From Eubacteriales bacterium (GTDB taxonomy: Bacteria; Bacillota; Clostridia; Oscillospirales; CAG-272), in NCBI GenBank assembly GCA_045660185.1, contig JAZRDI010000101.1, forward strand, positions 17,723-81,722: a stretch of DNA of 64,000 nucleotides, in the 5' to 3' direction. Shown here one piece after another: positions 59,924 through 63,265 of this stretch. Numbering within the stretch: the stretch's first letter is position 1; each line of letters begins with the position of its first letter. A model generated the notes under the pieces. It saw only the letters and a list, made by a program, of their open reading frames with translations. It did not search any database and was not told where the DNA came from. The translations under genes and the position numbers were made by a program.

Positions 59924-60137
59924 AAATCAGCCTTTCAAATAAAATAGAAGCCATAAGAGAGTATTTCTCCGTACAGCTTCCATTTTATCACATTTTTATA
60001 TTTTTTTCAATATCTAAACGATATTTAATAAATAATAAAACGATATTTGATAAATAATACCGCAAAGTAACCGTTTAACTGTTATTTTGAGTGAGTTTGC
60101 TTTATGAGTTAATTTGATGCGCAAAAACTACGTCTAT

Positions 60138-60812
60138 TTAAAATGGTATATAAATTTTGTTTTTTTCAAAATCTAATTTTACGGTGTTATCGTCTAACTT
60201 TTCGTAAGAAAAATTCAAACTTAATGCACCGGAGCAGATATATCCACTGAATTCATCGTTAAAGCAGTAAAATATGATTTCAATGCGAAATATACCTTCA
60301 TTTGATTTAAATGTGCTTTTTGGAATTGTTATGCTTTCGCTGTGATTGTAAATAAATTCCTTGTTAGGAGCAAGCCGATAACTGTATTTTCCTGAAAGCA
60401 GTTCATCTTCGGTAATTGAATGAATGTAAGTGTGATAAGGGATACTTTTGTAATCATCAAAAGACATTCCATACTCGGTAAAAACGGAATCCAATTTTCC
60501 AAATTCGTCGGTTTCACATATGTATAAACCGTAAACCATGTGCTTGTAATCCGTAGAAAGAAATCCGTACGATCTATCTTCTTTATGAAAAGCGTAATAA
60601 AATTCAAACGAAACGTTATCAATAGGAAAAGTATCCGTCTTTGAGCTGGCAGCGATTGGGGAGCTAATTCCAAAGCAGCCAATTTGTTGAACAAAGTCAC
60701 CCTTCTGGAACTTGCTGTCAGGAATCCTAACCGCGCATCCCGTGAGCATACCTATACTAAGCGATAAAGCCAATATACATATTAAAAATCGTTTAAAAAT
60801 TAAATTTAACAT
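60138..60812 (-). CDS. lipoprotein paralog 1 (unknown family)
   Basis: The start ATG at 60812 follows GGAGGTAATA. The track's 12-codon extension is spurious. Signal MLNLIFKRFLICILALSLSIGMLTGC. Confidence 0.7.
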   Translation of the reverse strand: MLNLIFKRFLICILALSLSIGMLTGCAVRIPDSKFQKGDFVQQIGCFGISSPIAASSKTDTFPIDNVSFEFYYAFHKEDRSYGFLSTDYKHMVYGLYICETDEFGKLDSVFTEYGMSFDDYKSIPYHTYIHSITEDELLSGKYSYRLAPNKEFIYNHSESITIPKSTFKSNEGIFRIEIIFYCFNDEFSGYICSGALSLNFSYEKLDDNTVKLDFEKNKIYIPF

Positions 60813-60919
60813 TATTACCTCCGTAAAATCAAGTAAATAATACCGCAAAGTAACCGTTTAACTGTTGTTTGAGTGAGTTTGCTTTATGAGTTAATTTGAT
60901 GCGTAAAAACTACGTCTAT

Positions 60920-61594
60920 TTAAAATGGTACATAAATTTTGTTTTTTTCAAAATCTAATTTAACGGTGTTATCGTCTAACTTTTCGTAATGAAAATCTAA
61001 ACCAAACGCGAAAGAAGCTATGTAACCTGCTTCATTTTCGTTAAAATTAAAGCATCGTAGAATAATTTGAAAATCTCCTGTTTCATTATTGAAAATGTTT
61101 TCCGGAATTTTTACAATTTCGCTGTGATTATAAACAAATTCGCCGTCAAATTTTATTTGATAGCTATATTTGTCCGAAAAAACTTCTTTATCTGTAATCT
61201 CTCTTATATAGTAATGGTAGGGTGTATTCTTGTAATCATCATACGGTTTATAGTAGTCGTTAAAAGCAGAACTTGTTCTAAAATCATCGATATCGCAAAC
61301 ACAAAGAACGACAACGAAGTGATCGTAATTGCTATCATAGAACTCATAATCAGGACCCTGTCCTAACTCATTAAAAGCGTAATAAAATTCAAAAGAAACA
61401 TCATCTATACTAAATGTATTTGTATTGGATTTTGCGGCTGTTGGTAGTATGACTGCGAATTCAAACTGTTGAACAAAGTTACCCTTTTCAAATCTGCTAT
61501 CCGGAATTCTAACCGAGCAGCTTGTAAGAATGCCTATGCTCAACGATAAAGCCAATATACATATTAAAAATCGTTTAAAAATTAAATTTAACAT
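60920..61594 (-). CDS. lipoprotein paralog 2
   Basis: Same RBS and signal peptide; lipobox ILTSC. Confidence 0.7.
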   Translation of the reverse strand: MLNLIFKRFLICILALSLSIGILTSCSVRIPDSRFEKGNFVQQFEFAVILPTAAKSNTNTFSIDDVSFEFYYAFNELGQGPDYEFYDSNYDHFVVVLCVCDIDDFRTSSAFNDYYKPYDDYKNTPYHYYIREITDKEVFSDKYSYQIKFDGEFVYNHSEIVKIPENIFNNETGDFQIILRCFNFNENEAGYIASFAFGLDFHYEKLDDNTVKLDFEKNKIYVPF

Positions 61595-61702
61595 TATTAC
61601 CTCCGTAAAATCAAGTAAATAATACCGCAAAATATCCGTTTAACTGTTGTTTTGAGTGAGTTTGCTTTATGAGTTAATTTGATGCGCAAAAACTACGTCT
61701 AT

Positions 61703-62380
61703 TTAAAATGGTACATAAATTTTGTTTTTTTCAAAATCTAATTTTACGGTTTTGTTGTTAATTTTTTCGTAATGAAAACCTAACCCGAATGAGAAAGAAG
61801 TTATGTAACCTGCTTCGTTTTCGTTGAAATTAAAGCATCGCAGACTAATGTTGAAATCTCCTGTTTCATGATTGAAAATGTTTTCCGGGATTTTTACAAT
61901 TTCGCTGTGTTTATAAACAAATTCGCCGTCAAATTTTGTTTGATAGCTATATTTGTCCGCAAAAATTTCTTCATCTGTAATCTCTCTTATAAAGTAATTG
62001 TATGGTATGTTTTTGTAATCATCATACGGTTTATAGTAGTCGTTAAAAGCAGAACTTGTTCTATAATCATCGATATCGCAAACGCAAAGAACGACAACAA
62101 AGTGATCGTAATTGCTATCATAGAACTCATAATCAGGACCCTGTCCTAACTCATTAAAAGCGTAATAAAATTCAAAAGAAACGTTGTCAATAGGAAAAGT
62201 ATCTGTCTTTGAACTGGCAGCGATTGGAGTACCGATTCCAAAGCAGCCAATTTGTTGAACAAAGTCACCCTTCTGGAACTTGCTGTCAGGAATCCTAACC
62301 GCGCATCCCGTGAGCATACCTATACTAAGCGATAGAGCCAATATACATATTAAAAATCGTTTAAAAATTAAATTTAACAT
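61703..62380 (-). CDS. lipoprotein paralog 3 (chimera of types 1 and 2)
   Basis: The first ~75 residues are nearly identical to paralog 1. The remainder is nearly identical to paralog 2. Confidence 0.7.
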   Translation of the reverse strand: MLNLIFKRFLICILALSLSIGMLTGCAVRIPDSKFQKGDFVQQIGCFGIGTPIAASSKTDTFPIDNVSFEFYYAFNELGQGPDYEFYDSNYDHFVVVLCVCDIDDYRTSSAFNDYYKPYDDYKNIPYNYFIREITDEEIFADKYSYQTKFDGEFVYKHSEIVKIPENIFNHETGDFNISLRCFNFNENEAGYITSFSFGLGFHYEKINNKTVKLDFEKNKIYVPF

Positions 62381-62488
62381 TATTACCTCCGTAAAATCAA
62401 GTAAATAATACCGCAAAGTAACCGTTTAACTGTTATTTTGAGTGAGTTTGCTTTATGAGTTAATTTGATGCGCAAAAAATACGTCTAT

Positions 62489-63169
62489 TTAAAATGGTAC
62501 ATAAATCTTCCTTTTCTCAAAATTTAACTTAACGGTGTTATCGTCTGTCTTTTCAAAAGCAAAATTCAGCCCAAATCCAAAGGAGTCAAAGTATCCGCTT
62601 AAATCATCGTACATGTTGTAACATTTTAAATCGATATAAAATACCCCTTTTTCGTATTTGAATATGCTTTCCGGAATTTTTATAGTTTCGCTGTGGTTGT
62701 AAATAAATTCCTTGTTAGCAGCGAGCCGATAACTGTATTTTCCCGAAAATGCTTCATCTTCGGTGATTGTATATAAATAAGTTTGGTAAGGAATGTTTTT
62801 GTAATCGTCAATTGGTGTTCCAAATTCGTGAAAATCATAATTGTATTTTCCTGATTCATCTACTACGCGTATGGATAAAGCAAAAAGAACATGGTCGCAT
62901 TTGTTAAGATAAAATCCTCCTCCGGAAGTGTCACCTTCCTCGTGAAATGCGTAATAAAGCTCAAAAGAAACATTATCAATGGGAAAAGTATCCGTCTTTG
63001 AGCTGGCAGCGATTGGAGCACCGATTCCAAAGCATCCAATTTGTTGGACAAAGTTACCCTTTTCAAATCTGCTATCCGGAATTCTAATCGAGCAGCTTGT
63101 GAGCATACCTATACTAAGCGATAGAGCCAATATACATATTAAAAATCGTTTAAAGACCAAGCAGAACAT
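62489..63169 (-). CDS. lipoprotein paralog 4 (first gene of the array)
   Basis: The start ATG at 63169 follows GGAGGTGATAAAA. The track's 69-codon extension is spurious. Signal MFCLVFKRFLICILALSLSIGMLTSC. Confidence 0.7.
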   Translation of the reverse strand: MFCLVFKRFLICILALSLSIGMLTSCSIRIPDSRFEKGNFVQQIGCFGIGAPIAASSKTDTFPIDNVSFELYYAFHEEGDTSGGGFYLNKCDHVLFALSIRVVDESGKYNYDFHEFGTPIDDYKNIPYQTYLYTITEDEAFSGKYSYRLAANKEFIYNHSETIKIPESIFKYEKGVFYIDLKCYNMYDDLSGYFDSFGFGLNFAFEKTDDNTVKLNFEKRKIYVPF

Positions 63170-63236
63170 TTTTATCACCTCCATACAATAAACGAAAATA
63201 CGAAACTTTAAACTACGTTTAAAATACCTCATAATC

Positions 63237-63265
63237 ATTATAACACAAACGTAAATTTGAGTCAA
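63237..63265 (-). promoter_or_regulatory. sigma-A-type promoter upstream of the paralog array
   Basis: On the minus strand: TTGACT (63265-63260), 17-nt spacer, TATAAT (63242-63237). No comparable promoter or terminator is visible in the inter-copy spacers. Confidence 0.55.

Follow-up and report, generated by a model that had tools for sequence, protein, structure and literature searches.

A four-gene lipoprotein array in a gut Clostridia genome is a recombining insertion that retains fragments of a paired gene for an HExxH protein

The 64-kb stretch of DNA analysed here (the window, whose positions serve as coordinates throughout) comes from an uncultured gut Clostridia lineage and carries a tandem array of four lipoprotein genes, which we name A, B, C and D in minus-strand order. 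We find that the array is an insertion, rich in AT, that separates rpsB from a conserved gene for a membrane protein, that one of its genes is a recombinant of two others, and that each spacer preserves the 3′ end of a gene for a large protein with an HExxH motif. In related and in distant genomes that gene lies close to members of the same lipoprotein family, and the two form a conserved gene pair. Neither the relic in the spacers nor the link to the HExxH protein was part of the first-pass annotation of this DNA, which described the array from its sequence. The explanation that we favour, tentatively and at somewhat less than an even chance, is that the lipoproteins, anchored in the membrane, inhibit or confer immunity to a secreted zincin-like enzyme and persist in this genome as an orphan array.

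Results

The four genes of the array (Table 1) all have a GGAGG ribosome-binding site (RBS) 7–9 nt 5′ of the ATG and follow one another with distances of 782, 786 and 789 bp from start to start. The first-pass annotation had described a four-copy tandem lipoprotein array on the minus strand, with a period of 782–786 bp and a near-invariant spacer of ~75 nt. The array and two of the distances stand, the third distance falling just outside the claimed range. The spacers are indeed near-identical, the three full copies being mutually 96% identical, but they are 107–108 nt long, and this is the one real correction to that description. A copy of the spacer also follows gene D, as had been claimed, at 60051–60137 rather than 60054–60137. 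No further array copy was found elsewhere in the 64-kb window. The G+C content of the array is 32.4% against 40.9% for the rest of the window, the second lowest value among 304 windows of 3.3 kb, which confirms its reported AT-richness.

Table 1. Features of the array and of the inserted segment, in window coordinates.
Feature	Position	Strand	Description
Candidate sigma-70-type array promoter	63237-63265	-	TTGACT-17-TATAAT with upstream TG, 68 nt 5′ of gene A start
Gene A	62489-63169	-	Open reading frame, 226 aa, lipoprotein, core type A, GGAGG RBS
A-B spacer	62381-62488	-	108 nt; big-gene 3′ relic at 62438-62395
Gene B	61703-62380	-	Open reading frame, 225 aa, lipoprotein, D/C chimera, GGAGG RBS
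B-C spacer	61595-61702	-	108 nt; big-gene 3′ relic at 61652-61609
Gene C	60920-61594	-	Open reading frame, 224 aa, lipoprotein, core type C, GGAGG RBS
C-D spacer	60813-60919	-	107 nt; big-gene 3′ relic at 60870-60827
Gene D	60138-60812	-	Open reading frame, 224 aa, lipoprotein, core type D, GGAGG RBS; AlphaFold2 query
Truncated spacer copy after gene D	60051-60137	-	87 nt, 96.6% identical to spacer; cut-off relic from 60087 to ~60051
22-bp unit x2 at distal insert junction	60016-60059		Overlaps sequence that is single-copy in the empty site
Inserted segment, whole	60024-63366	-	~3.34 kb, G+C 32.4%, by alignment with empty-site genome L002

The final ~45 nt of each spacer before the RBS are homologous to the 3′ end (~10–12 codons) of a 919-aa gene found in related genomes and called here the big gene. 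The relics read in frame ...QLNGYFAVLFT followed by the stop codon, against ...NLTGYFAVLFT and stop in the intact big protein. Homologues of the big protein end in a similar strand (e.g. ...SGVVTVYFT) and the structural model puts residues 911–918 in a beta strand, which indicates that the relic is genuine coding sequence turned spacer. The presence of the relic in the spacers further indicates that the duplication unit comprises the big-gene 3′ end, the RBS and the lipoprotein gene, and that the window array descends from a big-gene/lipoprotein pair, though the locus no longer holds the big gene. A plus-strand open reading frame (ORF) of the window, 26874–29633, also encodes 919 aa, with a lipoprotein-like N-terminus and a seemingly cysteine-rich sequence; it was considered as a big-gene homologue and proved unrelated, the same length being coincidental.

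Intact big genes, with ORFs of 919–921 aa, are embedded in the array of L018 and L019 and of L020 to L022. We also read the context of three distant homologues, 33–43% identical to the L018 protein. In L032, a 217-aa member of the lipoprotein family lies 47 nt upstream of the big gene (hidden Markov model (HMM) E 1.8e-80); in L035 and L036, a 224-aa member lies 21 nt upstream (HMM E 2e-43); and in L033 and L034, two members lie downstream, the first after 14 nt, together with a fragment. At every big-protein locus read, therefore, a family member stands within 14–47 nt of the big gene, and the lipoprotein gene is co-oriented with the adjoining big gene (L018, L032, L033, L035). The divergence of the lipoproteins and that of the putative enzymes run roughly parallel.

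The big protein carries a signal peptide of the Sec type and the motif HEYAH; inspection of its sequence and a Pfam scan revealed no motif or domain that we could recognise as an anchor. Its ~24 homologue clusters, all unnamed, come from metagenome-assembled genomes (MAGs) of Lachnospiraceae and Ruminococcaceae type and make up a family of ~900–1100 aa. Across the 24 clusters H409, E410 and H413 are invariant, as are H436 and W457-x-E459-x-W461; H436 and E459 are candidate third zinc ligands. In the model (predicted local distance difference test score, pLDDT, 81.9) the HExxH motif lies on a predicted helix, residues 404–419, and the best fold match in the PDB for the two C-terminal beta domains is the tandem collagen-binding domains of ColG, a clostridial collagenase.

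The first-pass annotation had described conserved ends around a central region that falls into distinct types, and sliding-window identity, protein identity and synonymous divergence bear this out: divergence along the genes is not uniform. In 45-nt sliding windows, B, C and D are mutually 93–100% identical across the spacer and the start codon region, all four units are ~82–100% identical over the final ~100 nt and the downstream spacer, and identity between core types drops to 40–60%. At the protein level (residues 76–200) the types share 36–50% identity, against 89% for B and C, and the window thus holds three core types, A, B/C and D. Synonymous change has reached saturation between one core type and another (proportion of synonymous differences, pS, 0.77–0.81) and is slight at the ends; for codons 1–26 of B and D the synonymous divergence (dS) is 0.06. 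Since the ends are alike at synonymous and non-coding sites, gene conversion or recent duplication or exchange must have contributed, and not protein constraint alone.

Gene B makes the recombination explicit. Its 5′ third is of D type and the remainder of C type, with a breakpoint at gene nt ~198–204 (window ~62177–62183); in sliding windows it is 98–100% identical to D and then 93–100% identical to C. At the sites that distinguish C from D, the maximum chi-square is 159, a value reached in 0 of 2000 permutations, which proves gene B to be a D-5′/C-3′ recombinant. A crossover between D and C, which in L018 lie on either side of the big gene, would leave just such a structure: it would yield B and remove the big gene. 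Since the window has a C and a D of their own after B, one further rearrangement or more would be required, and we regard the crossover as a plausible but not proven route of big-gene loss.

The site of the array is recognisable in related MAGs by a common backbone of rpsB, a 244-aa membrane protein, rpmB, DUF6873 and an AI-2E transporter. In L002, a fecal Eubacteriales MAG that is the closest species representative, rpsB and the membrane-protein gene are divergent neighbours 342 bp apart; L002 401–734 aligns to window 63700–63367 at 89% identity and L002 770–986 to window 60023–59804 at 67%. The array is thereby an insertion between these two genes. The 244-aa protein was considered as a partner of the array and dropped, being present also in L002 and L003, which have no array. 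A 16-nt inverted repeat (60015–60030 and 63137–63152, 94% complementary) brackets the array and was considered as an inversion site; we judge it to be due to chance, because the distal arm, which falls inside the 22-bp repeat, mostly pre-exists in the empty-site genome, within the promoter region of the neighbouring gene, and is absent from L001. A phage or plasmid origin was also rejected, relatives being absent from viral contigs, phage records and plasmid records.

The content of the site differs between genomes, with 0, 2, at least 3 or 4 copies. The window holds A-B-C-D and no big gene. L018 and L019 have A-D-[919-aa gene]-C, and L020 to L022 have A′-[921-aa gene], followed in L020 and L021 by a D-like copy. 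L015 has two copies; L002 and L003 have none, L003 holding a different gene there. L001 has at least three copies, two of them D-like and one a frameshifted copy of a fifth type. This third copy (L001 1329–2005) is split into ORFs of 163 and 62 aa, as a pseudogene or through an assembly error, and its core type recurs in L015 copy 1.

N-terminal segments group by genome, the L015 copies being 92% identical to each other and only 50% identical to the window copies. Cores group by type across genomes: window B and C with L015 copy 2, window D with L001 copies 1 and 2, and L001 copy 3 with L015 copy 1. Gene A is 97% identical to L018 copy 1 at the nucleotide level and 99.7% identical in the core, and the core of gene C is 98% identical to that of L018 copy 3; the C core type is found also in L015 copy 2, at 50–54% amino acid identity. 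Between the window and L018, dS is 0.00–0.10 for array cores and 0.29–0.78 for flanking genes; between the window and L001, it is 0.014 for the D core (L001 copy 2) and 1.1–2.1 for flanking genes. Array cores that are far more alike between lineages than the genes beside them point to recent lateral exchange of cassettes. The ratio of nonsynonymous to synonymous divergence (dN/dS) of the cores is ~0.2–0.4 (0.2–0.3 between close alleles), and the cores are old types under purifying selection, common to several lineages and not fast-evolving.

Two ribosomal protein genes near the array also stand out from their neighbours. The rpmB gene (58786–58971) is 100% identical at the nucleotide level between the window and L001, although its neighbours have a dS of 1.1–2.1, and rpsB (63577–63999) is 99.3% identical to that of L018, although its neighbours have a dS of 0.3–0.8. 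Strong codon constraint, or recombination tracts that span the ribosomal genes beside the array, could account for this near-identity.

The proteins of the array belong to a large and unnamed family. A word-indexed homology search gave 6 matches, hinting at an orphan family; an exhaustive profile search raised the count to 253 cluster representatives at E ≤ 1e-3, of which 88 reach E ≤ 1e-10; nearly all have 200–250 aa. A scan of a genome collection with the family alignment found no match, and of two metagenome scans one was empty and the other gave a single 1-kb locus. Neither the four copies nor 134 relatives matched an entry of Pfam, NCBIfam, PHROG, PADLOC or the PDB sequences; for the Pfam family DUF576 there was no match at E ≤ 1 with the four copies nor at E ≤ 0.01 with the 134 members, and Inhibitor_I42 (PF09394) gave no Pfam match with either set.

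A lipobox of the type of PROSITE PS51257 consists of a basic n-region and a hydrophobic h-region followed by [LIVMFWSTAG](2)-[LIVMFYSTAGCQ]-[AGS]-C, with the cysteine at position 15–35. The four array proteins satisfy this pattern with LSLSIG[MI]LT[GS]C, the cysteine being Cys26 and K7 and R8 lying upstream, and are predicted to be lipid-anchored. Among the aligned members of the family a strict lipobox is present in 97 of 134, and most of the others have a variant lipobox or an N-terminal membrane anchor. The AlphaFold2 model of D, made from the family alignment (pLDDT 89.4, predicted template modelling score 0.83), has an N-terminal signal helix followed by an all-beta domain.

One distant member has a different neighbour. 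In L023 (8001–9079; also in L024 and L025), a 213-aa family member overlaps by 4 nt the start of a gene for a chagasin-type (Inhibitor_I42) lipoprotein, and the two genes are, to judge from this overlap, translationally coupled. Next, on the 3′ side of the pair, come genes for a protein with Listeria-Bacteroides repeats and for a secreted protein of 1248 aa that gives a weak hint of an alpha/beta-hydrolase. The 1248-aa protein was compared with the 919-aa protein as a possible homologue and found to be unrelated.

The array is probably transcribed as one operon from a single promoter. The candidate promoter upstream of gene A agrees with the consensus at 11 of 12 positions; it is a consensus match only, promoter-like sites being no commoner in the region than expected from shuffled sequence. 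Consensus scans found no promoter-like sites in the array spacers and no terminator-like sites in the spacers or after gene D, and so agree with the first-pass annotation, which had listed a single good promoter here and no terminators between copies. The sole terminator-like site of the array sits inside gene A. Spacers and leader have no RNA structure beyond that of shuffled controls (fold z-scores -0.9 to +1.4), by which RNA elements in them are ruled out. One strong promoter and unstructured spacers without promoters or terminators are what the one-operon reading draws on.

Other features of the window

A second strain-specific island is probably present at 45140–56435, an 11.3-kb segment between a Tex gene (42959–45139) and a cyclophilin gene (56474–56944). 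The Tex-cyclophilin interval is only ~270 bp in L018 and L019. The segment encodes two signal-peptidase-like (S26) proteins and proteins of 630 and 1212 aa without a Pfam match. Just 5′ of rpsB and outside the array, the plus-strand stretch 63465–63559 gives a sub-threshold match to the Rfam t44 RNA (27.2 bits, gathering threshold 44, E 0.013); it is consistent with an S2 leader and is 89% conserved in the empty-site genome. Finally, a minus-strand ORF of 332 aa at 57981–58979 is an over-extension across rpmB, the real DUF6873 gene being at ~57981–58700, and the same over-call occurs in the public gene calls for L001 and L018.

Discussion

Our data define the array as a set of old lipoprotein core types on an inserted segment, joined by near-identical ends and spacers that carry a piece of the big gene. 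We read the array as the product of tandem duplication of the unit of big-gene 3′ end, RBS and lipoprotein gene, on an AT-rich island acquired by lateral transfer. Homologous recombination takes hold at the identical ends and spacers; it homogenises the ends within a genome, reassorts old core types, alters copy number and brings gain or loss of the big gene, and it also lets cassettes move between related lineages. Under the explanation that we favour, each lipoprotein would bind and block, on the cell surface, the variant of the secreted enzyme that it matches and thereby shield the producer, and in strains without the enzyme the orphan lipoproteins would protect against enzymes released by neighbours.

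Several features point towards an inhibitor or immunity role. The big gene can be accompanied by several diversified copies of the lipoprotein gene, orphan arrays exist, and the family seems much wider than the enzyme. Adjacency is conserved across divergent genomes, and the genes occur as orphans, in multiple copies and with strain-to-strain variation (window, L001, L015, L033). The coupling to an I42 lipoprotein gene adds a further hint, and precedents established by experiment exist in the TilA/DUF576 proteins (PMC10730906) and in the potempins (PMC9890683).

A number of observations weigh against this explanation and keep us from holding it more firmly. The conserved adjacency is equally well accounted for by a tether, chaperone or activator role, and the pairing was read at four independent loci, one of them in two arrangements (the second in L020 to L022), and not by a census. 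Many members of the family occur as single genes surrounded by housekeeping genes, and this suggests a role that does not require the big protein. The hhalign alignment with the I42 lipoprotein of L023 covers the signal peptide only, and a Foldseek search of the D model against the PDB and viral models gave no match at E ≤ 1e-3, known inhibitor folds included; the insignificant matches were to beta-sandwiches only, e.g. P19/FetP and C2 domains. On the enzyme side, searches of Pfam and of the PDB sequences matched the catalytic region of the big protein to nothing, peptidase families included, and the full-length fold search was dominated by the C-terminal beta domains and did not resolve the catalytic domain. 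As HExxH is a short motif and the catalytic domain is without a match, the putative protease activity of the big protein rests on that motif. No big-gene homologue was detected in the 64-kb window, the part of this genome that was searched. Positive selection on the cores, which we considered, was dropped in view of their dN/dS of 0.2–0.4; none was detected, and synonymous sites are saturated between types.

Three other explanations deserve to be weighed. One holds that these are variable surface lipoproteins for host interaction, immune evasion or phage-receptor masking and that the big gene is mere cargo of the island. The first-pass annotation had leaned in this direction by calling the pattern typical of a surface family diversifying by recombination, and of that claim the recombination stands, through the chimeric gene B and the varied copy number, but the cores are not evolving fast. 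A lipobox and a predicted extracytoplasmic beta domain are what such proteins would have; conserved ends, variable cores and mosaicism, a content that differs from strain to strain, and cassettes exchanged laterally fit as well, and the pattern recalls known clusters of recombining lipoprotein paralogs, S. aureus lpl among them (PMC2568036). We nonetheless consider this explanation unlikely, since it accounts neither for the adjacency at four independent loci, whose big proteins are 33–43% identical, nor for the big-gene relic in every spacer, and since the cores are old, conserved and under purifying selection. Nor was any switching machinery found in the array: no homopolymer tract exceeds 7 nt and the promoter and 5′ coding region are free of such tracts, there are no inverted repeats around the promoter and no silent cassettes, each of the four genes has its RBS and start codon and all share one promoter, and the only repeat is the 22-bp duplication downstream of the array. 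Searches of phage and viral collections, too, found no relatives. A third possibility, that the array is a functionless by-product of unequal crossing-over, decaying after the loss of the big gene, would explain why that gene is missing from the locus and has left a dead fragment in the spacers, and one L001 copy is frameshifted. It is very improbable, given that all four window genes are intact, with RBS and lipobox, that dN/dS is 0.2–0.3 between close alleles and that the same core types are retained in several lineages.

The gene pair itself could also reflect an accessory partnership, in which the lipoprotein tethers the enzyme to the surface or acts as its foldase, activator or substrate-presenting subunit, the paralogs matching enzyme variants or substrates. 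The tight pairing, with gaps of 14–47 nt on either side of the big gene, is what would be expected of such a partner, as is the roughly parallel divergence of the two families, and a protein with a Sec signal peptide and no anchor recognised by sequence and Pfam scan might well need a tether. We think it improbable, however, for intact copies are under purifying selection at loci without the enzyme (window, L001, L015, L023, L027), and several diversified copies per enzyme gene are typical of immunity or inhibitor sets and not of chaperones (PMC10730906). The family also seems far wider than the enzyme, with 253 clusters at 50% identity against 24 at 90%, in searches that differed in sensitivity.

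A broader proposal, which we find rather doubtful at present, is that the HExxH protein of ~920 aa and its lipoproteins of ~220 aa make up an unrecognised Sec-dependent, contact-independent antagonism system of gut Clostridia. In that case competitors would come under attack from the secreted zincin at targets on their surface or in their cell wall; the lipoprotein cassettes would be polymorphic immunity genes, duplicated, recombining at their identical ends and traded between species; and arrays of this kind would keep a record of the enzyme variants met in the past. Whatever its function, the locus links two unnamed families, both common in Clostridia metagenomes from gut and rumen and both without a Pfam model or a solved relative, and it does so by gene order and by a sequence relic within the window. 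It also offers a clean natural case of concerted evolution, chimeric genes and the exchange of cassettes between lineages, all driven by identical ends and spacers, with flanking genes saturated at synonymous sites while the cassettes stay nearly identical.

Comparison with known systems

Lipoprotein paralogs with conserved signal peptides, variable mature regions and recombinational mosaicism are found in the Mycoplasma Vlp and Vsa families and in Borrelia Vsp/Vlp and vls. The array shares all three features with these systems (reviewed in PMC4534519), and differs from them in that no switching apparatus was found, the copies are apparently co-expressed and the core types are stable. On the features compared, the family falls outside the phase-variable lipoprotein systems, and outside DUF576, the potempins and the I42 inhibitors as well.

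By organisation, the closest system is the S. aureus Lpl/Csa/TilA cluster on the nuSa-alpha island, with tandem, strain-variable, recombining lipoproteins beside a gene for a secreted protein. In the lpl genes, homologous recombination at conserved segments reshuffles variable ones (PMC2568036), and among their products at least TilA (DUF576) is an immunity lipoprotein for a secreted toxin encoded at the cluster end, many copies occurring without the toxin gene (PMC10730906). The array proteins have no DUF576 sequence relationship to these lipoproteins, and the layout is reversed: lpl genes have a conserved centre between two variable ends, whereas in the array the ends and the spacer are conserved and the centre varies. 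The partner of TilA is a type VII-secreted lipase with helical partner proteins, that of the array family an HExxH protein with a Sec signal, and the uncultured gut host is unlike S. aureus. Orphan immunity arrays, such as those of the acquired interbacterial defence of Bacteroidales and the staphylococcal EsaG/DUF600 proteins, are likewise tandem sets of diversified paralogs, often without a toxin gene, laterally exchanged and strain-variable (PMC12247911, PMC10470768, PMC10730906). They neutralise type VI or type VII effectors, mostly inside the cell, in contrast to the predicted surface lipoproteins of the array and their putative Sec-secreted, extracellular effector.

By proposed action, the closest are the potempins of Tannerella forsythia, small lipoproteins that specifically inhibit an adjacently encoded KLIKK peptidase and shield the surface of the producer (PMC9890683). 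In both cases a lipoprotein gene adjoins the gene of a secreted (here putative) peptidase, and the proteins are beta-rich and had no earlier family annotation. Potempins have 98–132 residues and form OB-folds or eight-stranded barrels, compared with 224–226 aa and a mature beta domain of ~200 residues in the array; their host is a diderm member of the Bacteroidota with type IX secretion, that of the array a Firmicute; and tandem orphan arrays are not mentioned in the abstract of PMC9890683. The lipoproteins described here could be a Gram-positive counterpart to the self-protection that potempins provide or to the immunity conferred by TilA.

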